Shown here in pieces: positions 39,756-48,355 of a stretch of 64,000 nt of DNA (within the stretch, counting starts at the first letter, position 1; each line of letters starts with the position of its first letter). Made by a program: the position numbers and the translations under genes. The notes beneath the pieces are model-generated. The model worked only from the letters and a program-made list of their open reading frames with translations, was not told the origin of the DNA and did no database searches. Source of the DNA: a phage; sequence record PZ386966.1. One strand, 5' to 3'.

Positions 39756-40541
39756 ATGGGTATTGTAAAAATCATCAATGGTGATATCTTTGCAGCATTT
39801 GATAAAGGTAAGTTTGACGTCATCGGTCACGGTTGCAACTGTATGAACCTAATGGGTGCAGGTATCGCTGATAAGATTTCTAAACTTTACCCAAAAGCAT
39901 ATGAGACCGATACAGAAGTTTATCTATATGCAGGCGGTATAGGTCACAAACCCTGTGAAAATTTACTGGGTAATTTCTCCGTAGCACGTTTAAAACAAGG
40001 CCGTATAGCTAACCTTTACACTCAGCTTAAGACTGGTAAAGATGCTCGATATAGTGCTTTAGAGTCATCTTTGAAACAGCTTAACAGATACTGTGAAGTC
40101 AATCAGTTGAAGAAAGTCGGGTTACCTATGATTGGTGCAGGTATCGGTGGGCTAGACCCCCAAGCCGTCACAGTTATCATCAATCAGGTGATGAAGAGTG
40201 TAGATGTGTATCTGTATGTCTATGAAGGAGAGATGTACCACAAGTTACACTCAGGTTGGGAGAACTACTGTGAACCAGAATACTTTGCAGGTGTAGCAGT
40301 GTTCACGGATAATGCAGTTACCCTCTTCAGACGAAGAAAAGGTAAGATACATCAAAGTAACCCTCCGGTTGAAAAGATGTCTCTAAGTAACGCTCTAGTT
40401 ACCCACCTGTCGAAGAGCAATCACAGAATTGCAGTAACATTTGGCAGTGATGCAGATACTTACATCTATGCAAGAACTGATGAGGATATCGAGACAGTTT
40501 TCTCTTCGCCGGAAGTTACCTTCTTAGACGCAAAGAACTAA
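39756..40541 (+). CDS. macro-domain protein (ADP-ribose binding/processing)
   Basis: IINGDIFAAFDKGKFDVIGHGCNCMNLMGAGIADKI and VGLPMIGAGIGGLDP match the two glycine-rich macro-domain motifs. Confidence 0.6.
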   Translation: MGIVKIINGDIFAAFDKGKFDVIGHGCNCMNLMGAGIADKISKLYPKAYETDTEVYLYAGGIGHKPCENLLGNFSVARLKQGRIANLYTQLKTGKDARYSALESSLKQLNRYCEVNQLKKVGLPMIGAGIGGLDPQAVTVIINQVMKSVDVYLYVYEGEMYHKLHSGWENYCEPEYFAGVAVFTDNAVTLFRRRKGKIHQSNPPVEKMSLSNALVTHLSKSNHRIAVTFGSDADTYIYARTDEDIETVFSSPEVTFLDAKN

Positions 40542-40619
40542 GAAACTCTGTAGAATATTCACAAGAGACTAAGCCTTTCTTATCTGGTAAATTTTTCAGG
40601 TAAGGAGGGCTTTTTTATT

Positions 40620-40800
40620 TCAGGATTGTGCAGGTAGAGTTCTGTAGAGAAATCTGTAGAGAAAATTTTGAACTCCAAAGAGAAAATTCATTTTCAAACT
40701 GTGCAGGTAATCTCCAAAGAGCTTTTTCATTTTCAAAACGTGCAGACCCCACTCAGGTCGGGCAAGAAAAATCATTTGAGAATTGTGCAGGTAGGTTTTT
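40620..40800. repeat. direct repeats CTCCAAAGAG..TTCATTTTCAAA..TGTGCAGG (two ~36-bp units, extra TGTGCAGGTA copies)
   Basis: Units at 40672-40707 and 40713-40746; TGTGCAGGTA at 40627, 40700, 40787. Confidence 0.55.
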
Positions 40801-40968
40801 ATAGACAGCCAGACCAACCCCTCTCCCCCTCTTACTCCCCCTCTCCCAAAGAGTCAAGAGAAAAATTTGTAGCGGATTGAAAAATAATTCTTGATTATTG
40901 TTCTGTTTTGTGGTAGCCGTGTGCGCCCGTTTCATTACAGTTTTTTGCAAAAATATTTTTAAAATTTT

Positions 40969-40997
40969 CTTGACTCTCTGGATTTTGTTGCCTAGTA
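40969..40997 (+). promoter_or_regulatory. sigma70-like promoter for small-gene array
   Basis: TTGACT-17 bp-TAGTAT upstream of first small gene. Confidence 0.5.
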
Positions 40998-41050
40998 TTT
41001 GCAGCAGACAGGGTGACAAGCCCACTAACCTAAACTGGAGAATCTAAGAA

Positions 41051-41434
41051 ATGGCATACCGTGCAACTAAGTTCATCAACAAAGATAACTTCCGCAATGT
41101 ACTGGAGAAGTCACTTGATGAAAATTTCAAAGGTAATACTATTGTTGTTCACGCATTTAATTTTAAATATGACGTAAATGGTAACAGGATTAACCATTAC
41201 ACGGCAACCATGTTAGACGGTACTCTGTCAAGTGAAAAAGCAATTTTACATGCACTTGCAGGACGTGGTAAAAACCTGATAAGATGCGATAAGAGACGTT
41301 ATCAAGGTGGTGCATATGGTTACGATGATGCTATCTATCATCTTGAGAATATGGGCTATCTAGTAGAAAAAGCGGGAGTACCCCAAATTATTGGTAGTGA
41401 TGGCTATGTAACAATTTTCAAAATTAACCGATAA
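41051..41434 (+). CDS. hypothetical protein (small-gene array 1)
   Basis: Preceded by conserved TAAACTGGAGA..ATG initiation region. Confidence 0.5.
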   Translation: MAYRATKFINKDNFRNVLEKSLDENFKGNTIVVHAFNFKYDVNGNRINHYTATMLDGTLSSEKAILHALAGRGKNLIRCDKRRYQGGAYGYDDAIYHLENMGYLVEKAGVPQIIGSDGYVTIFKINR

Positions 41435-41519
41435 AGTACTTTACAAGGGGCTTAGTAGTTGATACCTTAAGCCCCAGATAAAGAGCTTTACCACTAAATC
41501 CTAAATTGGAGATTCAAAA
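41431..41519 (+). repeat. intergenic element A copy 1 (TAAAGTACTTTA palindrome + GGGGCTTA/TAAGCCCC hairpin + conserved RBS)
   Basis: Near-identical to copy at 43111-43199. Confidence 0.7.
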
Positions 41520-41810
41520 ATGGCTATTATCAAAAACGTTGTAGTTCCTGCAAAAACTCGTGATGACGCTCGCATCATGGCGAAAAAGTTAGGCGGGAAA
41601 GTGGTTGACAACGGAAAACAATCTGCTGTAAGGTGGGGCGTAAAGGCTGATAAGCAGTTGAAGTTAAAAAATTCACCAATAAACCTTTTTACATGTGTAA
41701 ACACTATCGGGAAGACAAATGTATACACGAAAAAGGCATATATTAGACGCGTAGCCTTAACATCCCCCATTCGTACAATGAGAGGTTATGCAAAACTGAA
41801 AATTAACTGA
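41520..41810 (+). CDS. hypothetical protein (array 2)
   Basis: ORF after element A. Confidence 0.5.
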   Translation: MAIIKNVVVPAKTRDDARIMAKKLGGKVVDNGKQSAVRWGVKADKQLKLKNSPINLFTCVNTIGKTNVYTKKAYIRRVALTSPIRTMRGYAKLKIN

Positions 41811-41899
41811 TAAAGTACTTTACAGGGGGCTTAAAAGTTGGTATCTTAAGCCCCAGATAAAGAGCTTTACCACTCAATCCTTAAACTAGGAGAGTCAAA
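41811..41899 (+). repeat. intergenic element A copy 2
   Basis: Same palindrome and stem, different loop. Confidence 0.65.
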
Positions 41900-42112
41900 A
41901 TGAACATTAATCAAAAACTGAAAGCCGCCTCACAAGTCCTATTCACAGATGATGACTATTTCAATAAAGACCTTACAGGTTTGAAATCTCTCAAAGAGAT
42001 TAAAGAGCGCATGAAAATTTATGGAAAACCTCGGTTAGTTGGCGTATTCTCTAACTGTTATGTTTATCAGCTTAATGGTCATTACAATTTTACAATTACT
42101 ATTTTATCCTAA
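41900..42112 (+). CDS. hypothetical protein (array 3)
   Basis: ORF after element A. Confidence 0.45.
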   Translation: MNINQKLKAASQVLFTDDDYFNKDLTGLKSLKEIKERMKIYGKPRLVGVFSNCYVYQLNGHYNFTITILS

Positions 42113-42128
42113 ACTGGAGATTCAAAAA

Positions 42129-42425
42129 ATGAAATTATCAAATAAAGTTCGTGAAAATCTGAGCAAGTTACTCAACAAAATTGATTTCATTGAAACATCA
42201 AGAAATAGTCATGATGTTATGGAATGGTTACACGGCAAAATAAAAGGTCGTCGTGTAGTAATTTGCTTATGGAATAGTTGCAGGGAGTATAAAAAACCTG
42301 TATTACAAATCAATGTTTATGATGATACTTTTAAAAGTCCTGTAAAGTCTAAAAGCGATTTATTAGAATCCTATGAGATATCTGTAAATGGTAAAGTGTC
42401 ACGTAAAGAGGAAACACCATGCTGA
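42129..42425 (+). CDS. hypothetical protein (array 4)
   Basis: ORF 42039-42425 trimmed to Met following conserved CTAAACTGGAGATTCAAAAAATG. Confidence 0.45.
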   Translation: MKLSNKVRENLSKLLNKIDFIETSRNSHDVMEWLHGKIKGRRVVICLWNSCREYKKPVLQINVYDDTFKSPVKSKSDLLESYEISVNGKVSRKEETPC

Positions 42426-42751
42426 TGACTGGTATCACTGCAATCATTGCCATTTTCGCACTCTATAAGGCATATAAAGCCTATAATCTAGCAAATAAAG
42501 CAATCACGCAGCAGGTTAGCAATAGCCTTGTAGAGAGCTTTCTAGAGCGCCTCAGTGATGAGCAAATAAAACGGCTAGAGATGAGCTTCAGATATAAAGC
42601 GAAAACCTATCAGATAAGTGACATCTTCAAAGATGATTTTCAGTTAGTCGATGATTATAATTCACTGATAAATGCTTTAAATATCAGTGACTTAAAAGAC
42701 TACTACGCTGTAATTGTTCAAGAATTGAGCAAACGAAAACAAAGTGTTTGA
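42419..42751 (+). CDS. hypothetical membrane protein (array 5)
   Basis: N-terminal hydrophobic segment MLMTGITAIIAIFALY. Confidence 0.45.
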   Translation: MLMTGITAIIAIFALYKAYKAYNLANKAITQQVSNSLVESFLERLSDEQIKRLEMSFRYKAKTYQISDIFKDDFQLVDDYNSLINALNISDLKDYYAVIVQELSKRKQSV

Positions 42752-42841
42752 CACTGGTTTTTAGATAGATTAAATTACACATCAACGGGGAGGGAATGAC
42801 CTTCCCCACTAAGTAAAGTCCTTAAACTAGGAGATTCTAAA
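42748..42841 (+). promoter_or_regulatory. element B copy 1: promoter (TTGACA-17-TAAATT) + GGGGAGG..CCTTCCCC hairpin + RBS
   Basis: TTGACA 42748-53, TAAATT 42771-76, hairpin 42787-42807. Confidence 0.6.
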
Positions 42842-43114
42842 ATGTATACTACTAACAACGGTCGTACTTTAAATGTCACTCTACGTCACTATGTAGATGG
42901 TGTAATGTGCTTTGAGGATTTACAAGCTGAGCAACACATCTTAGATTGGCAACTTGCAGGACTCCAAAAAACTACTACTGGATACGGTAAAAAGATTCCA
43001 ACTAGCTGGAAAGTATACTACGAAGGACGTTTGCGCAGAATTTATCAAGATGTGTATAGTAATAGTGCATCAAGTTACATCATGGTAAAAGGTAAAAAAC
43101 TGCATTTAGTATAA
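42842..43114 (+). CDS. hypothetical protein (array 6)
   Basis: ORF after element B. Confidence 0.5.
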   Translation: MYTTNNGRTLNVTLRHYVDGVMCFEDLQAEQHILDWQLAGLQKTTTGYGKKIPTSWKVYYEGRLRRIYQDVYSNSASSYIMVKGKKLHLV

Positions 43115-43199
43115 AGTACTTTACAAGGGGCTTAGTAGTTGATACCTTAAGCCCCAGATAAAGAGCTTTACCACTAAATCCTAAATTGGAGATTCAAAA
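43111..43199 (+). repeat. intergenic element A copy 3
   Basis: Identical by eye to copy 1. Confidence 0.7.
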
Positions 43200-43604
43200 A
43201 TGGCTATTAATGACCGTGAGTTATCAATACTGAAAGCACGTTTGACCGTTAACCGGATTAATGTTATTACATCATCAGCACCTGATGAGACATTGCACAA
43301 CATTATTGGAAAGATTCAAAGTGTTATCTTAGACGTTGAAAATGTAAAAAACTCATTGGCTGACGTTGCAGCAGGTATCACGCTAGACGGCGCACAATAT
43401 GAAATGGCTGACATGTTAGGCAAATCAAAGGTAATGAATAAAGAATTAGACTTGAAAATGTTCAGATTTGCTGTTAAAGTGTGGCTATCCGTCGAGTATG
43501 ACGCCAATTTTGCAATCGCTGATTTCTTTGCCACTTGGTTACAACGTAACTTAACAAGCTATGATTTTCGTGATATCTGTGATGCAATTTATGCAGAACT
43601 CTAA
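43200..43604 (+). CDS. hypothetical protein (array 7)
   Basis: 134 aa ORF. Confidence 0.5.
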   Translation: MAINDRELSILKARLTVNRINVITSSAPDETLHNIIGKIQSVILDVENVKNSLADVAAGITLDGAQYEMADMLGKSKVMNKELDLKMFRFAVKVWLSVEYDANFAIADFFATWLQRNLTSYDFRDICDAIYAEL

Positions 43605-43610
43605 AAACTG

Positions 43611-43704
43611 TTGACACTGGTTTTTAGATAGATTAAATTACACATCAACGGGGAGGGAATGAACTTCCCCACTAAACAAAGTCCTTAAACTAGGAGACTC
43701 AAAA
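43611..43704 (+). promoter_or_regulatory. element B copy 2
   Basis: TTGACA 43611-16, TAAATT 43634-39, hairpin 43650-43670. Confidence 0.6.
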
Positions 43705-43908
43705 ATGGCTATTATTAACGGCTTAAACATCGAAACAACACACATCAAAGACATTAAAGTTGGTGATGTAGTCCTTTCCCACGGCGTAGAGAAAACTGTT
43801 ACTGCAAAGGATATCAAAGAGGATTCTTTCATGGGTAGGACTCTCTTCGGTGATTCTTATTGCTTAGGGTATCTTGCAGTTTTAAAAGTTGTCAAAAATA
43901 ACAAATAA
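43705..43908 (+). CDS. hypothetical protein (array 8)
   Basis: 67 aa ORF. Confidence 0.45.
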   Translation: MAIINGLNIETTHIKDIKVGDVVLSHGVEKTVTAKDIKEDSFMGRTLFGDSYCLGYLAVLKVVKNNK

Positions 43909-43994
43909 AGTACTTTACAAGGGGCTTATAGTTAGATAAAGTAAGCCCCAGATAAAGAGCTTTACCACTAAATCCTTAAACTAGGAGAGTCAAA
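43906..43994 (+). repeat. intergenic element A copy 4
   Basis: Same palindrome; stem GGGGCTTA/TAAGCCCC with different loop. Confidence 0.65.
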
Positions 43995-44537
43995 ATGAAA
44001 TGCTTTCACGGCACTACTCAAGAAAATTTTATCAATCTGATTAATAACGGCGATAAGCCATCAGGTGCATGGAATTGTTCGGATATGGACGGCAATTTTT
44101 ACGTGTATCCAGAAAATAAAATCTATGGCGACGATGAGGAAGAGATAACATCCGAAGGTATTCAACAAGCATTAGGAAATGCCACTATTACCGCAGCTTT
44201 TCAGATGAAGACTCAAAATATTGTTATCTTAGAACTTGACATTCCAGAGGATGAGTTAAATGATGATTACTCTTGTGATAATATGTCAAGCGTGGCAAGT
44301 TTTACAGAGTACTTTGATTTAAATTGGATTAAAAAGGTTTACATCACTGAGTTTAATGCTATGTTTTCGCCTTTTTGTCTTCCTTCACTGGATAACCCCA
44401 ATTTAAACTATCTTGATGAGTCTCTGGAGCTTCTTGCTAAAAGTGTTCAACAGTCCGACAGTATTCAGGTTTTTTGTGATATCATGGATACACTGACAGG
44501 AAACATCACAGAAAGAGATTTGAAGAGTTTTTTCTAA
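43995..44537 (+). CDS. hypothetical protein (array 9)
   Basis: 180 aa ORF, hairpin terminator after it. Confidence 0.5.
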   Translation: MKCFHGTTQENFINLINNGDKPSGAWNCSDMDGNFYVYPENKIYGDDEEEITSEGIQQALGNATITAAFQMKTQNIVILELDIPEDELNDDYSCDNMSSVASFTEYFDLNWIKKVYITEFNAMFSPFCLPSLDNPNLNYLDESLELLAKSVQQSDSIQVFCDIMDTLTGNITERDLKSFF

Positions 44538-44603
44538 AAACCTATGCAATCACCTTATAAACACTGATTAGCCCCTTGTAGGGGCTTTTAGAGGGCTTAA
44601 ATC

Positions 44604-44837
44604 ATGCTTACAACTGTTTACCTCATCCTTTCCATCTGTAATGGTCATTCATGTGATTTTAAAGGGCTTGAGGAGTTTACAGGGAGTAAAGAAAATGCTA
44701 TTCAAGTTTGCCAGATAGCAAGACAAGACTATCCCGCCAGTGATGATATTCAATGCTACTTTAAGACAGAAGATGAAGACGGCGTCTATTTTGACAGTGT
44801 CGATGGTCAATATGAAATTATCATTGAAAAAGACTAG
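44604..44837 (+). CDS. hypothetical protein (array 10)
   Basis: 77 aa ORF. Confidence 0.4.
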   Translation: MLTTVYLILSICNGHSCDFKGLEEFTGSKENAIQVCQIARQDYPASDDIQCYFKTEDEDGVYFDSVDGQYEIIIEKD

Positions 44838-44927
44838 ACAAGCCTGATAAAAATCTGTAAATTGTCAATCAACGGGGAGGGAATGACCTTCCCCACTAAA
44901 TAAAGTCCTAAACTGGAGAATCTAAAA
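44835..44927 (+). promoter_or_regulatory. element B copy 3 (variant -35 TAGACA)
   Basis: TAGACA-17-TAAATT, hairpin 44873-44893. Confidence 0.5.
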
Positions 44928-45269
44928 ATGGCTTATGTAACCGTAATTACCGATAAAGCTGGCGCATCTTGGTCAACTCAGGTCAGTGATAAGATGTCAC
45001 CTATGCAGTGCCTAAAATACTTTGAACAGTGGAATAAAGGCGAGGACACAAGCCCCTTTCAAGTGATGCAGATTATCCATGTAGACAACGAAGGGAATAA
45101 AACGACGCTGAATAGTGAGTACTATGCAAGCCGTTTTGAAACGAGAAGTAAAACAATGAAACTTTTACGTGAATCCGGTTATACCCATATCGCCGCGTTA
45201 ATCTGGGATGACCTGCTAAAAAGTCAGCGTATCAGCTATGTAAAACCTGAAAAAATATTCATCAGTTAA
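44928..45269 (+). CDS. hypothetical protein (array 11)
   Basis: 113 aa ORF. Confidence 0.5.
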   Translation: MAYVTVITDKAGASWSTQVSDKMSPMQCLKYFEQWNKGEDTSPFQVMQIIHVDNEGNKTTLNSEYYASRFETRSKTMKLLRESGYTHIAALIWDDLLKSQRISYVKPEKIFIS

Positions 45270-45300
45270 TCAATGACTTACAAAAAACTTTTAAAAAGAT

Positions 45301-45325
45301 GTTGACAATCCCTCTTGACATTGGT
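45301..45325 (+). promoter_or_regulatory. double-TTGACA promoter-like motif GTTGACAATCCCTCTTGACATTGGT
   Basis: Same architecture as motifs at 10209 and 56082. Confidence 0.4.
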
Positions 45326-45398
45326 AACTTTGTTCGAGGGGGTTTATCTAAAAGGGATTAACTTAAAAGATTCTTTATAGATAGACTTAAAAAATTGC

Positions 45399-45491
45399 TT
45401 GCAATCAGATATCAAAACAAGTAAATTACTCATCAACGGGGAGGCAATAACCTCCCTACTAAGTAAAGTCCTTAAACTAGGAGATTCTAAA
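45399..45491 (+). promoter_or_regulatory. element B copy 4 (compensated stem GGGAGG..CCTCCC)
   Basis: TAAATT box 45423-28, hairpin, conserved RBS. Confidence 0.5.
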
Positions 45492-46022
45492 ATGAACAAG
45501 TTCAAAGCTATCAACTATATTCGTTCAAATAATGTAATGTCTAAGCCTGTTAAAGATACCTATGAATTTCGTTGCAATGGTGAGCACTTTGCTACTATCA
45601 CTAAATCAGAAAACGGGGCTTATTATATCCATCGTCGTAATGTTTCTACGGTTGTAGTTTCTAACTTTATGCAAGCTGTAGCGGAACTCCTCCCGCTCTT
45701 CTTAGAAAAGTATACCGTACAGTGTGAAAGTGTTCGTGAATGCACTAAAACAGTGTTAAACGGTTATCGTATGGCTTACGAGCGCTCTTTAAAGAATCTC
45801 AACAAGTACTACAAAGCACCGGAAGGTACTACCTCGACAGCCTACGGGGTAGGGGGCTTCAATGTTAGCCTTTACGAAGTGGAAGAAATCGAGCTTTATG
45901 ACCATCGCCCAAATGGTTACGCTAAAACACTGGGGGAAGGGTTAATGATGAATATCAAGAACTTAGAAAAAACTTTAAGAGAAATTGAAAAAGACATTGA
46001 CGAGACAATCACGAATCTGTAA
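45492..46022 (+). CDS. hypothetical protein (array 12)
   Basis: ORF 45399-46022 trimmed to MNKFKAINY after conserved RBS. Confidence 0.5.
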   Translation: MNKFKAINYIRSNNVMSKPVKDTYEFRCNGEHFATITKSENGAYYIHRRNVSTVVVSNFMQAVAELLPLFLEKYTVQCESVRECTKTVLNGYRMAYERSLKNLNKYYKAPEGTTSTAYGVGGFNVSLYEVEEIELYDHRPNGYAKTLGEGLMMNIKNLEKTLREIEKDIDETITNL

Positions 46023-46024
46023 AG

Positions 46025-46083
46025 TGTCTTTTAACGGGGGATGACCTCCCCCACTAAACAAAATCCTAAACTGGAGATTCAAA
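46025..46083 (+). promoter_or_regulatory. element B copy 5 (hairpin + RBS)
   Basis: GGGGGATGACCTCCCCC hairpin and conserved initiation region. Confidence 0.45.
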
Positions 46084-46347
46084 ATGGAACACGTAGAATT
46101 GACCACACTGTTACAGATTGCAACCGACAAAGAGGATGTAGCATTATTCCATCGTATCGAGAGTGATTTGTTCAATGGTGAAATCATTAAAGAGTCTTAC
46201 GAAGTTGTCGGATTCAAAGACGGTAAAGCGTTCGGATTCTTTGACCTCGACAAAGGCAAAGCGGTTACAAAATATGATGTTTTATCTTGTGAGATTCTGA
46301 CAAAATACAACGAAAAAAGGCTTGCAACATACGCCAACATGCAGTAA
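46084..46347 (+). CDS. hypothetical protein (array 13)
   Basis: 87 aa ORF. Confidence 0.5.
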   Translation: MEHVELTTLLQIATDKEDVALFHRIESDLFNGEIIKESYEVVGFKDGKAFGFFDLDKGKAVTKYDVLSCEILTKYNEKRLATYANMQ

Positions 46348-46415
46348 ATTACTAATCAACGGGGAGGTTATTGCCTCCCTACTAAGTAAAGTCCTTAAAC
46401 TAGGAGATTCAAAAA
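46347..46415 (+). promoter_or_regulatory. element B copy 6 (hairpin loop is the reverse complement of copy 4)
   Basis: GGGAGGTTATTGCCTCCC versus GGGAGGCAATAACCTCCC. Confidence 0.5.
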
Positions 46416-46664
46416 ATGGCAACTATCCGCGCAACTGTCAATGCTTATGGCTGTTATACCCTGGACGTTAAATTTGATATTGGTGGAACTGATGAGTGTT
46501 TTTCATTAGTGAAGACAGTTATCAAGCAAGTTATCCCAGATTATAACCCTACTGATGACTTCTGGAAAGACGCTGTAAAAGAGGCATTAAACGACGAGCA
46601 TCACTATCATTACTGGGGTGACTTGATTATCTCACTGTACTACAATAAACAAGGTTACAACTAA
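46416..46664 (+). CDS. hypothetical protein (array 14)
   Basis: 82 aa ORF. Confidence 0.5.
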   Translation: MATIRATVNAYGCYTLDVKFDIGGTDECFSLVKTVIKQVIPDYNPTDDFWKDAVKEALNDEHHYHYWGDLIISLYYNKQGYN

Positions 46665-46702
46665 TCGACGCAACGGGGCTAAATAGCCCCAGATACCTTT
46701 AC

Positions 46703-46726
46703 AGCCCCATTTAAGGGGCTTTTTTA
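46703..46726 (+). terminator. intrinsic terminator ending the + strand block
   Basis: AGCCCC-ATTTA-AGGGGCT then TTTTTT. Confidence 0.65.
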
Positions 46727-46900
46727 CGTCTATGTAATAGCCTCTATACAATCCTTTCCCTTTCCTTTCCAGAGTCTATCCCACTAATTTGATAGAATCT
46801 ATCTCGTACCTTAAAAGCAATAACTCTATAGTCTACTCTATAATCTCTTATCAAATCAACTTAAATATAAGCCCATAACCCGAAAGGGAAGGGCAACCGT

Positions 46901-46927
46901 TTAATTGGTATTGTTACCAATCCCTAA
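46901..46927. repeat. 27-bp exact repeat TTAATTGGTATTGTTACCAATCCCTAA (copy 1), contains TTGGTA..TACCAA palindrome
   Basis: Second copy at 47596-47622. Confidence 0.7.
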
Positions 46928-47595
46928 ACGCTCTATAAAGCTCTATAACAGCCTTATCAACCTAACTTAAGGGATTGCATTAACTCACCTTAAAAAGCTC
47001 TTTACAGGGCTTTATAGAGGCTTAAAAGAATCTTATAAGGTTATAAGCTTTATTATCTCGTTAGCTATCTTGTGAACTACTAAAAAGGGGCTTGTTAGTA
47101 TCTTAAAAGTATGTTATAGGGGCTATAAAGTTACTCCAAAGTTACGTAAATGTTAGCCCCCTTAACATTTTCTTAACAATTTCTTAACAAACCCTACATA
47201 GTTATGCTTGTTAGCCCCTTGTTAAATCTCTGTTACAACCATGTAAAAGCCTTGTAAGAACCTTTGACATAGCCTTTAAAGCCTCTGTAAAGCCCTATAA
47301 AGAGCTATCTGTACAGTTGGGCTGTAGTTACTAGGGAGAGACTTAAAAGGGGCTATGCAGAGCTATACAGAGCTTTTAAGAGGTATGTTTAAAGAATCAC
47401 TAAGAGGGAAAGGGAACGATAAGAAAAGAAAGTTGTGTTTGTAAACAACCACTGTGACCATGTTAACAGCTTGTTAAAAAGATTAAACACTTGTTAGGAA
47501 CTTGTTAATTATCTTAACAAAATAACTCTTTAAAATTAACTTGTTAGCTCTTGTTAATCATCTGTTAAGACTCTGTAAAGACTATGTATCAACTG

Positions 47596-47622
47596 TTAAT
47601 TGGTATTGTTACCAATCCCTAA
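47596..47622. repeat. 27-bp exact repeat (copy 2)
   Basis: Identical to 46901-46927. Confidence 0.7.
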
Positions 47623-48355
47623 GAAACTGTTACGCTCTTGTTAGTTCTGTTAAGGAACTGTTAAGACCTTTGAAGGGTTGTTAAGAAGATGTGAGAACTG
47701 TTAAGAGATTGTTAAGGATATTTTAAAATTTTGCAAAGGGGGTGTTAAGGAGCTGTTAAGGGCTACCAAGCAGATATACATCTTCTACAGATATTTTTCA
47801 GTTCCTTCAAAGACCCTGAAAAATGACTTGACAGTCTTATTTTATAAAAATTTTAAAATTCTGAATAATTACCTATACAGTCTTTTAAAAATACAGGCAT
47901 AAACAGGCTTATAAGATACCTTGTTAGTACCGTGTTAGACCTTGTGAGATAAGGTCTGTGAAGATATTCCTGTTAAGTTTGTTAAAACAGTCTATATAGA
48001 GGTTTAGTAGTACCTAGTGAACACCTATAGAGAGTATCATAGCTGACATAGAGATTAAGAGGTGTATAGGGGCTTCTAAGAGGCTATAGAGAGATGGTTA
48101 AGGTGATTGTATAGGTTGTTAAGAAGGCTTGTTAGAAGAGTGTTTAGAAGGGCTATACAGAGGGGCTATTAAGACCACTAGATAGATACTAAGATACTAT
48201 ATAGTACTATATAACTATATAGAGAGTAAGATTAAGAAGGTTGTTAAGAAGGGTAGATATTTTATTCACATATGATGGTGACCCAGAGGTTGGGACAACC
48301 GATGAAATTTTATAAAAATTAAAAAGCCCCCAATTAAGGAGGCTCTTAAGATATT

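Follow-up and report, generated by a model that had tools for sequence, protein, structure and literature searches.

In a 64,000-nucleotide (nt) stretch of phage DNA (PZ386966.1), hereafter the window, 14 small genes on the + strand (g1 to g14) make up an island at 40970-46726, with a leader promoter at one end and a terminator at the other. Our results suggest that this is a hyperplastic early-gene island built of one-gene or coupled two-gene modules, each under a composite cassette. We consider it probable that these cassettes are counterparts of the promoter-early-stem-loops (PeSLs) of T4-type phages: each would give its module an early promoter of host type, along with a strong ribosome site within the translation-initiation region, the hairpins would be functional, and the repeats would serve as homology for recombination. 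The source phage is a Felixounavirus, that is, a Felix-O1-like myovirus. The 5.85-kb island stretch matched 253 phage records, nearly all of them from Felixounavirus, the best match being Escherichia phage HY02 (89% identity over the full length). The anatomy of the cassettes, their conservation pattern, the maintenance of their hairpins, the insertions and deletions (indels) that they bound and their concerted evolution all emerge from sequence comparison, in which island sequences from 15 other Ounavirinae genomes were set beside that of the window (16 genomes).

Repeat finding and motif searches revealed a full cassette upstream of 11 of the 14 genes (all but g4, g5 and g10), and these cassettes fall into two families, type A and type B. 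The order of elements is common to both. First comes an A-rich stretch with the upstream gene's stop codon, next a sigma-70-type promoter whose spacer is 17 nt long, then a stem-loop with a G-rich 5' arm and a C-rich 3' arm, and last an initiation region, such that every cassette ends with GGAG, about 8 nt and ATG. An initial annotation of this DNA had described an almost invariant initiation region ahead of nearly all the genes. Indeed, the sequence CCT(T)AAAyT(A)GGAGAttcaaaaATG, shared by the two families, precedes 12 of them; it is missing at g5, which has an overlapping ATGCTGA start, and at g10, which has its own Shine-Dalgarno (SD) sequence after a terminator-like hairpin. Type B corresponds to element B of that annotation and stands, as given there, at six genes (g6, g8, g11, g12, g13 and g14). 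The promoter assigned to it, TTGACA-17-TAAATT, needs a partial revision. The perfect TTGACA is found in two of the six copies, the others having TAGACA, TTGCAA (twice) and TTGACG, whereas the -10 hexamer, TAAATT or TAAAGT, lies 17 nt from the -35 in all six. The type B layout is thus -35, 17 nt, TAAATT, 7 nt, AAC, the G-rich/C-rich hairpin, ACTAAnTAAAGTCC and the initiation region, with the stop codon of the upstream gene in or beside the -35 or the -10. Type A, the second family, was absent from the text of the initial annotation. It precedes g2, g3, g7 and g9, starts at the TAA stop codon of the upstream gene and reads TAA-AGTAC-TTTACA-n-GGGGCTTA..loop..TAAGCCCC-AGATAAAGAGCTTTACC.. before the initiation region. 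Motif searches over the window returned 6, 5 and 4 matches against about 0.2, about 0.2 and 0 expected, and all of these matches lie within 41-46.5 kb.

The promoter assignment draws on 78 type B cassettes from 15 genomes and 30 distinct type A cassettes. In type B, the -35 hexamer at the fixed 17-nt distance is TTGACA (22), TTGCAA (21), TTGACG (11), TAGACA (10), TTGACT (7) or TTGATT (5), and the -10 hexamer is TAAATT (60), TAAAGT (8), TAGTAT (5), TAATAT (4) or TATAGT (1), so that TAnnnT is present in 78 of 78 copies; the 17-nt spacer between them is almost information-free. In type A, TTTACA is near-invariant, with a single T-to-C exception, and the only invariant positions of the loop are T32, A33 and T37, which make up a TAnnnT 17 nt from TTTACA, often after TGn. 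The three middle bases of this TAnnnT and the rest of the loop vary freely. The 17-nt spacing is retained despite the loss of 1 bp from the stem, and also in Erwinia phage phiEa104, where the stem is altered. A generic consensus promoter scan selects the same sites, and A-tracts lie upstream of the -35. Judged from these alignments, the conservation pattern of the hexamers is that of sigma-70 promoters. Reverse transcription PCR (RT-PCR) in Felix O1 has placed the expression peak of the island orthologues ORFs (open reading frames) 16, 20, 21 and 22 at 5 min after infection (PMC3185647). We also considered the cassettes as T4 middle promoters, with GAGCTTTA as the MotA box, 11-12 nt and TAAAyT; we rejected this reading because transcription would then start within the SD and because polymerase-modifying genes are reported to be absent from Felix O1 (PMC3185647).

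Evidence for the hairpins comes from both folding and comparison. Type B hairpins fold with -11.7 to -15.2 kcal/mol (z -2.4 to -4.8), and all 33 distinct hairpin sequences found across the genomes can fold, with stems as different as GGGGAGG/CCTyCCC, GGGGG/CCCCC, GGGGC/GCCCC and GTGAGG/CCTCAC. The G-rich arm is always 5' (210 G against 10 C in the 5' halves), G.U accounts for 22 of 220 pairs, and folding favours the sense strand over the antisense strand (-361 vs -310 kcal in total). The hairpin begins 10 nt after the -10 hexamer, so that 3-4 nt would separate it from the predicted mRNA 5' end. Type A folds with about -22 kcal/mol (z -3.4 to -4.7). RNAalifold and a separate pair count agree on a two-part helix of 20 bp. 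Its lower stem, of about 10-11 bp, comprises the upstream stop codon and pairs AAAGUACUUUA with UAAAGAGCUUU; a 3x3 internal loop separates it from the upper stem (6-9 bp). Pairing holds in 92.9% of the cells, compared with 33-58% when the partners are slid. Compensatory changes are seen at the lower-stem pair 6-56 (GC 21, UA 5, AU 1, GU 1), and in the upper stem of phiEa104 GGTG..CACC replaces GGGG..CCCC. The type A stem lies between the promoter boxes and over the -10, while the -35, partly within the lower stem and internal loop, immediately precedes the upper stem. Rfam searches (E up to 1) gave two chance-level matches, both outside the cassettes, and no known RNA family.

Two structural arguments of the initial annotation fared less well. 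It had seen compensatory variants among the hairpins of the window itself, but these are one-sided G-C/G.U changes, and double-sided compensation becomes visible solely on comparing relatives. It had also taken an inverted hairpin loop as a sign of selection for structure. The inversion is real, in that the 10 nt GGCAATAACC at 45443-45452 (g12) are the exact reverse complement of GGTTATTGCC at 46366-46375 (g14). However, it is most simply explained as a small palindrome-mediated inversion, and is not evidence of such selection.

The island also behaves as a modular unit. The initial annotation had named strict conservation of the same genes among relatives as an observation that would speak against modularity. 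Such conservation is not seen: at least 80% of the island is covered in just 14 of the 253 related records, and the 14 genomes compared in detail differ by ten indel events. That cassettes shuffle genes is true as far as presence, absence and replacement go, but the order of genes is identical in all 14 genomes and thus has never been shuffled. Among these genomes, g3 is present only in the window and HY02, and in eight others its slot holds a 170-residue gene, F16 (Felix O1 ORF16). The g8-g10 block is absent from Felix O1 and PMBT20, g13 is absent from 5 of the 14, extra genes occur in wV8, finno/Shy and Silverhawkium, and in Mooglevirus (Silverhawkium) an unrelated 82-residue gene (x58) replaces g8. 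In all ten indel events the long allele is flanked by in-register direct repeats of 20-95 nt with 82-100% identity. Since both repeats end at the ATG, each indel consists of whole cassette-plus-gene units, and the junctions leave exactly one clean cassette. The coupled pairs g4+g5 and g9+g10, whose members have no cassette between them, always travel together. Unusual arrangements occur as well. E9 (L002, ~2557-2721) has two tandem type A cassettes with no gene between them; in Michonne the ATG of a type A cassette runs straight into the next cassette (ATG|CTTTACA; L015, 3082-3253), and two adjacent 258-bp genes in the g2 slot, presumed to be a tandem duplication, have a type A cassette each (L015, 2824-3511). 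These arrangements look like footprints of deletion and unequal crossing-over.

Recombination between cassettes is further suggested by their similarity within genomes. The g2 and g7 cassettes, 1.7 kb apart, differ at 4.9 positions on average within a genome and at 8.6 between genomes (permutation p 0.004), and the within-genome difference is below even that of orthologous copies (7.6 and 9.3). There are no differences over 99 nt in the window, none in heid and one in Silverhawkium; the two copies in the window have in common a loop variant found in no other genome. Because these private variants occupy free positions (the loop and post-SD bases), they require sequence exchange, and by this comparison the g2 and g7 cassettes evolve in concert. 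Over all cassettes, too, paralogous copies are almost as similar (0.87-0.88) as orthologous ones (0.89-0.91). Homogenisation within genomes, taken over all copies, shows weakly in type A (p 0.011) and not in type B (p 0.19), and the clear signal is confined to the g2/g7 pair.

From these observations we infer promoter activity, early timing, roles for the hairpins and a recombination pathway, which together suggest how the island might work. On each monocistronic mRNA, the type B hairpin would be a 5'-terminal stem-loop (at about +3/+4), and on read-through RNA an internal hairpin. It would guard the message from 5'-end-dependent decay and might possibly attenuate read-through. In type A the -10 lies in the loop and 3' arm of the 20-bp hairpin, and therefore the same DNA specifies both promoter and helix. 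This DNA would double as a promoter and, in RNA coming from upstream, as a long interrupted helix, for which attenuation, 3' stabilisation or cleavage by RNase III would be possible roles. At the level of DNA, the 60-100-bp cassettes would be dispersed direct repeats at which homologous recombination deletes, inserts, duplicates or replaces modules, leaving the expression of neighbours undisturbed, while gene conversion would keep the cassettes homogeneous.

Several observations weigh against this picture. Four of the six type B -35 hexamers in the window are weak, and promoter-like matches in this A/T-rich region exceed those in shuffled sequence by no more than about twofold overall (36 vs 23.7). 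The conservation of TTTACA in type A can alternatively result from CTTTA/TAAAG pairing in the lower stem. The literature searched contained no transcriptome of a Felix-O1-like phage or other member of Ounavirinae, so that promoter use is predicted here, and the RT-PCR study of Felix O1 puts ORFs 14, 17, 19 and 23 at 25 min (PMC3185647), which means that timing in the island is not uniformly early. The antisense strand of type A folds better than the sense strand (-28 kcal/mol), and so folding does not settle which strand acts. The lack of U tracts after the hairpins means that the terminator role of T4-type PeSLs may not apply. Furthermore, a gene-less hairpin at 46675, at the end of the island, keeps CCCCAGATA and is without promoter hexamers, which implies that the hairpin has a role independent of the promoter. 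Finally, selection against junctions within genes would enrich intergenic breakpoints even if recombination were not mediated by cassettes.

Might the type A element, then, be mainly a signal for RNA processing or stability? Long polycistronic early RNAs would start at the leader and type B promoters and be cut by host RNase III in the 3x3 loop, as happens between the cistrons of T7 early mRNA; we regard this as possible, if doubtful. Much about the helix agrees with it: two parts amounting to about two helical turns around a symmetric 3x3 loop, found by two methods; covariation at the pair 6-56 and in the phiEa104 upper stem; a start exactly at the upstream stop codon; the invariant AGATAAAGA after the stem; and the copy at 46675, which keeps the hairpin and AGATA in the absence of promoter hexamers. 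On the other hand, pairing leaves unexplained why the invariant T, A and T form a TAnnnT 17 nt from TTTACA, often after TGn, and why this spacing survives stem changes and the deletion of 1 bp from the stem. The cassettes have no Rfam match, and RNase III reactivity is unpredictable from sequence. Cleavage would, on this reading, leave the upstream message a protective 3' hairpin and free the next initiation region; a promoter role is compatible with it. Combining the two functions leads to a bolder scheme, which seems to us improbable. Here, the host promoter of type A would reside within an RNase III-type helix, the initiation region would be the operator of one factor, and the resemblance of the cassettes to PeSLs would be convergent. 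Upstream RNA may be cut or stabilised at type A, with new transcripts beginning inside the same hairpin. The near-invariant leader and initiation region (AGAUAAAGAGCUUUACC.., ACUAAnUAAAGUCC, CCUUAAACUAGGAGAUUC; 12 of 14 genes) could be an operator for a phage or host factor that could switch off the whole island together; a translational repressor similar to RegA or a GGAG-cutting nuclease similar to RegB would suit this role.

It is unlikely, in our opinion, that the stem-loops are terminators or attenuators that insulate each module from read-through, as in T4-type PeSLs, and leave every gene dependent on its own promoter alone. A polyG/polyC stem-loop of phi1/RB49 did reduce lacZ expression as much as the rrnB T1 terminator (PMC2839356), the hairpins of the island are G/C-rich and stable, and some GenBank records annotate them as terminators. 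Yet neither type A nor type B hairpins are followed by a U tract, having AGATAAAG or ACTAAnTAAAG instead, and this led us to reject them as ordinary intrinsic terminators. A scan of the + strand found qualifying sites only at 40571 and 46703, with 44570 qualifying weakly. Moreover, a strong type B terminator would shut off its own gene, as the hairpin is downstream of its own promoter, and g4 and g5, lacking a promoter of their own, must rely on read-through across the type A elements of g2 and g3. Still less credible is the idea that the repeats are passive, either as leftovers of duplication or as a strongly selected expression signal, with cassette-bounded indels due to selection against gene-damaging junctions. 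Purifying selection on the promoter, hairpin and ribosome site alone would keep the copies alike, and the lack of significant homogenisation of type B agrees with this (p 0.19). However, the proteins are unrelated and so form no duplication series, g2 and g7 have same-genome private variants at free positions (p 0.004), junctions are in register and leave one clean cassette, and the presumed tandem duplication and tandem empty cassettes are typical of unequal crossing-over. Thus, PeSL-like cassettes that combine expression signals with recombination homology are the reading that we prefer.

All cassettes and genes of the island are on the + strand. The leader cassette of g1 (40970..41050) is a degenerate type B, with TTGACT-17-TAGTAT at 40970-40998, a weak hairpin, GGGTGACAAGCCC, at 41011-41023, and then the initiation region CCTAAACTGGAGAATCTAAGAA; wV8, Mushroom, PMBT20 and HY02 have a full GGGGAGG..CCTTCCCC hairpin here. 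It is followed by g1 itself (41051..41434, 127 residues, phrog_4495). The type A cassette of g2 (41432..41519) starts with the stop codon TAA at 41432 and has TTTACA at 41440-41445 and, preceded by TGA, TACCTT at 41463-41468. Its upper stem pairs 41447-41455 with 41467-41475 and its lower stem ~41433-41444 with 41479-41490 (-22 kcal/mol, z -4.4). Between g2 (41520..41810, 96 residues, basic, phrog_5089) and g3 (41900..42112, 70 residues, phrog_12266) lies another type A cassette (41808..41899), with TTTACA-17-TATCTT, including the TG, at 41819-41847. The stop codon of g3 falls inside the next initiation-region motif, CCTAAACTGGAGATTCAAAAA (42107..42128), which serves g4 on its own, with neither promoter nor hairpin. 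The reading frames of g4 (42129-42425, 98 residues) and g5 (42419-42751, 110 residues, with an N-terminal membrane helix) overlap at ATGCTGA, making a two-gene module at 42129..42751. In the type B cassette of g6 (42748..42841), TTGACA at 42748 overlaps the g5 stop codon TGA, TAAATT is at 42771-42776, and the hairpin occupies 42787-42807 (-15.2 kcal/mol, z -3.5).

Downstream of g6 (42842..43114, 90 residues, phrog_3436), the type A cassette at 43112..43199 is 100% identical to that of g2 over 99 nt and leads to g7 (43200..43604, 134 residues, phrog_4327). A type B cassette (43611..43704; TTGACA-17-TAAATT at 43611-43639, hairpin at 43650-43670) precedes g8 (43705..43908, 67 residues, phrog_3623), and a type A cassette (43906..43994; TTTACA-17-TAAAGT at 43914-43942) precedes g9 (43995-44537, 180 residues, acidic). 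Between g9 and g10 (44604-44837, 77 residues) stands a terminator-like hairpin, AGCCCCTTGTAGGGGCTTTT at 44570-44589, to which the wV8 record gives a terminator annotation. The type B cassette of g11 (44835..44927) has TAGACA-17-TAAATT at 44835-44863 and its hairpin at 44874-44894. Next, g11 (44928..45269, 113 residues, phrog_4318) is separated from g12 (45492..46022, 176 residues, phrog_4725) by a 222-nt spacer (45270..45491) that includes the g12 type B cassette, with TTGCAA at 45399-45404, TAAATT at 45422-45427 and a hairpin at 45438-45457 (-12.5 kcal/mol, z -4.8). This spacer, highly conserved across genera, has in its A/T-rich DNA overlapping TTGACA hexamers at 45302 and 45316 and a hairpin of reversed polarity, CCCTC..GAGGG, at ~45300-45345; in Mooglevirus (Silverhawkium, Michonne) it is longer and has a small extra annotated ORF. 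A strong early promoter, a small RNA and a decayed module are all conceivable here. At g13 (46084..46347, 87 residues, phrog_7022) the type B cassette (45997..46083) has its -35, TTGACG, inside the coding end of g12, its -10, TAAAGT at 46020-46025, contains the g12 stop codon, and its hairpin, GGGGGATGACCTCCCCC, is at 46036-46052. The last type B cassette (46322..46415), which belongs to g14 (46416..46664, 82 residues, phrog_4559), has TTGCAA at 46322-46327, TAAATT at 46345-46350, which contains the g13 stop codon, and a hairpin at 46361-46380 (-14.6 kcal/mol, z -4.2) with the loop inverted relative to the g12 copy. The island closes at 46670..46726 with a remnant that has no gene, CAACGGGGCTAAATAGCCCCAGATACCTTTACA, in which A and B motifs are combined, and an intrinsic terminator at 46703-46720 followed by a T run.

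As to the proteins, all 14 consecutive small ORFs of the initial annotation are present, but its size range of 67-207 residues has to be corrected. The length of 207 residues results from a TTG start farther upstream; translated from the cassette-linked ATG at 45492 the protein has 176 residues, and the true range is 67-180. In agreement with that annotation, we found no Pfam or NCBIfam match for any of the 14 proteins, and all belong to PHROGs of unknown function. Per-member Pfam scans gave only weak UPF0223 matches. For g9 and g12, sequence searches against PDB returned no significant match; the AlphaFold model of g9 has a mean confidence (pLDDT) of 68, and the viral structure library BFVD gave no match. 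The idea that an island protein is an ADP-ribosyltransferase is a weak lead only. We also considered a duplication array and discarded it: in an all-against-all BLASTP comparison of the 14 proteins the best pairwise E was 0.23, and such mutually unrelated proteins do not make a duplication series. An SD of the GGAG type is present at 11 of 13 island genes, compared with 21 of 78 other predicted genes of the window, an excess that arises because the genes have the cassette in common. This bias would matter if the phage had a GGAG-specific nuclease like T4 RegB. Some similarity reaches into the genes: ATGGCTATTA (Met-Ala-Ile) opens g2, g7 and g8 (41520-41529, 43200-43209 and 43705-43714), and ATTGAAAAAGAC (Ile-Glu-Lys-Asp) is common to the C-terminal ends of the unrelated g10 and g12, or just before them (44817-44840 and 45985-46002), adjoining the -35 of the next cassette. 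Since cassette homology extends into coding sequence in this way, recombination junctions or promoter UP elements may shape protein termini.

As to its surroundings, the island lies downstream of rIIA, rIIB and a macro-domain gene; in HY02, rIIA and rIIB are followed by a series of small coupled genes and then by the macro-domain 'phosphatase' gene. In the window this last gene of the upstream operon is at 39756-40541 (Macro domain, E 1e-7), and an intrinsic terminator on the + strand (40571..40612; 17-bp stem and T run) closes the operon and marks the left border of the island. Between it and the island promoter is a 500-nt non-coding leader (40615-40850), with three direct repeats of ~34 nt (CTCCAAAGAG..TTCATTTTCAAA..TGTGCAG), ATTT.AG.ATTGTGCAGGTAG in two copies and, after the repeats, a C-rich tract (CCCCTCTCCCCCTCTTACTCCCCCTCTCCC). 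On the other side, 1.6 kb without an ORF (46730-48320), unusual for a phage with a coding density of ~90%, are flanked by convergent terminators (46703 on the + strand and 48347 on the - strand). This region harbours two perfect copies of a 27-nt sequence that has a palindrome inside it, TTAATTGGTATTGTTACCAATCCCTAA, 695 bp apart (46901 and 47596), as well as TGTTAAGAC repeats at 47552-47667, and the heid and finno records annotate repeat regions in the corresponding stretch. The 24 clustered tRNA genes on the + strand (58267-63556) are what one would expect of a Felix-O1-like phage. The ends of many GenBank records fall near the island, and we considered a link between it and the physical genome ends. 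This link was dropped, as the mapped 608-bp terminal repeat of UAB_Phi87 adjoins a homologue of wV8 gp55 in the tRNA region, not the island.

If our interpretation is correct, composite cassettes that drive gene shuffling would not be peculiar to T4-type phages and would have had a second, apparently independent origin in Ounavirinae. This subfamily includes Felix O1, the classical Salmonella typing phage, and many candidates for therapy and biocontrol. The interpretation would supply a meaning for repeats noted in 2010 and candidate host-type promoters for this one island; for the genome with its many terminators, the authors of the Felix O1 study stated that they could explain neither the passage of transcription past these nor its timing (PMC3185647). 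Felix O1 on Salmonella or Bas63 on E. coli K-12 would offer a tractable model for cassette-mediated recombination and for 5' hairpins on early mRNA. The island represents a set of about 20 interchangeable small genes that are candidates for host-takeover and anti-defence screening, and the cassettes might be natural insulated expression units, usable for inserting payload genes into these phages.

The elements themselves have been seen before. The Felix O1 genome paper (Whichard et al. 2010, PMC3185647) gives them as direct repeats without interpretation: its 57-bp repeat (CTTTACATGGGGCTTA..AGCTTTACCACT) is type A, and its 39-bp repeat (TTGACACTGGTTTTTAGATAGATTAAATTACACATCAAC) is the promoter part of type B. 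They are missing from the promoter and terminator lists of that paper, which makes no mention of structure or modularity and draws no comparison with PeSLs (PMC3185647). The GenBank record of wV8 has the same elements as DR_1 to DR_9, and the wV8 paper is silent on repeats. In the literature searched, eight phage papers mention PeSLs, and by their titles and abstracts none deals with Felix-O1-like phages. Such cassettes have apparently been described for T4-type phages and not for this group. The version in Ounavirinae, with its two families, would be an independent one. A blastn search (word size 11) of 50,697 phage records detected no sequence homology to T4-type PeSLs and no spread to other phage groups. 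Apart from one record labelled Staphylococcus and one labelled Campylobacter, the cassettes were found only in Ounavirinae (Felixounavirus, Mooglevirus, Suspvirus and Kolesnikvirus), and therefore they are analogues of PeSLs rather than members by descent. Felixounavirus, Mooglevirus and Suspvirus have both types, 29 records of Erwinia phages have type A as well, and in complete relatives the number of blastn matches per genome equals that of the island cassettes. In phiEa104 an island at the same position, after the macro gene (L014, 4000-10760), has diverged type A elements, its own initiation region (CCCTTAtAAAGGAATCAAAA) and TTGACA-18-TAAAAT elements straddling a GAGGGGT..CCCCTC hairpin. 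An Erwinia island with such diverged elements indicates that the design principle is older than the sequences.

T4-type PeSLs are known from RB49/phi1, PST and nt-1 (Arbiol et al. 2010, PMC2839356; Comeau et al. 2014, PMC4122927). Their stem-loop, typically of polyG and then polyC and with G-T pairs, can take any of five places with respect to the promoter (PMC2839356). The resemblance proposed by the initial annotation holds, in that every feature of these PeSLs that can be tested on sequence (PMC2839356) is found in the island. In both systems there is a stop codon in an A/T-rich stretch, sigma-70-like -35 and -10 boxes, a polyG/polyC stem-loop between the boxes, over the -10 or just past it, and an SD and ATG at the 3' end. 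Both are concentrated in a hyperplastic ORFan region, and in both close relatives differ by indels that cassettes bound and whose crossovers lie between the -10 and the ATG. The differences are equally clear. PeSLs are many elements in several regions, whereas the island has two tightly conserved families within ~6 kb; type A has an extra lower stem, giving a 20-bp interrupted helix that includes the stop codon; type B hairpins lie inside the transcript, and U tracts are absent here. Promoter and terminator activity and mini-circles belong to the description of T4-type PeSLs; for the island cassettes they are putative.

Other known systems resemble the cassettes in part. One of them, the morons of lambdoid phages, is discussed in the PeSL study (PMC2839356). 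The RNase III sites of T7 are repeated, sequence-conserved inter-cistronic hairpins of about two helical turns with an internal loop. They lie between small early genes expressed by the host RNA polymerase and are not promoters for it, and they are not known to drive gene shuffling. Type A likewise is an interrupted helix of ~20 bp with an internal loop, and its cleavage is putative. Morons are autonomous gene units with their own promoter and terminator; their flanks are not conserved repeats and are not known to mediate mobility. The REP and BIME elements (repetitive extragenic palindromes and bacterial interspersed mosaic elements) of enterobacterial genomes are dispersed, affect mRNA stability and recombine, and they have neither promoter nor ribosome site. 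In the ompA 5' untranslated region, a stem-loop is reported by Emory, Bouvet and Belasco (1992) to stabilise E. coli mRNA against 5'-end-dependent decay. The type B hairpin has the same geometry, lying ~3-4 nt from a 5' end that is predicted here from the promoter; unlike the ompA stem-loop, however, type B hairpins are repeated at many genes and would double as homology for recombination.

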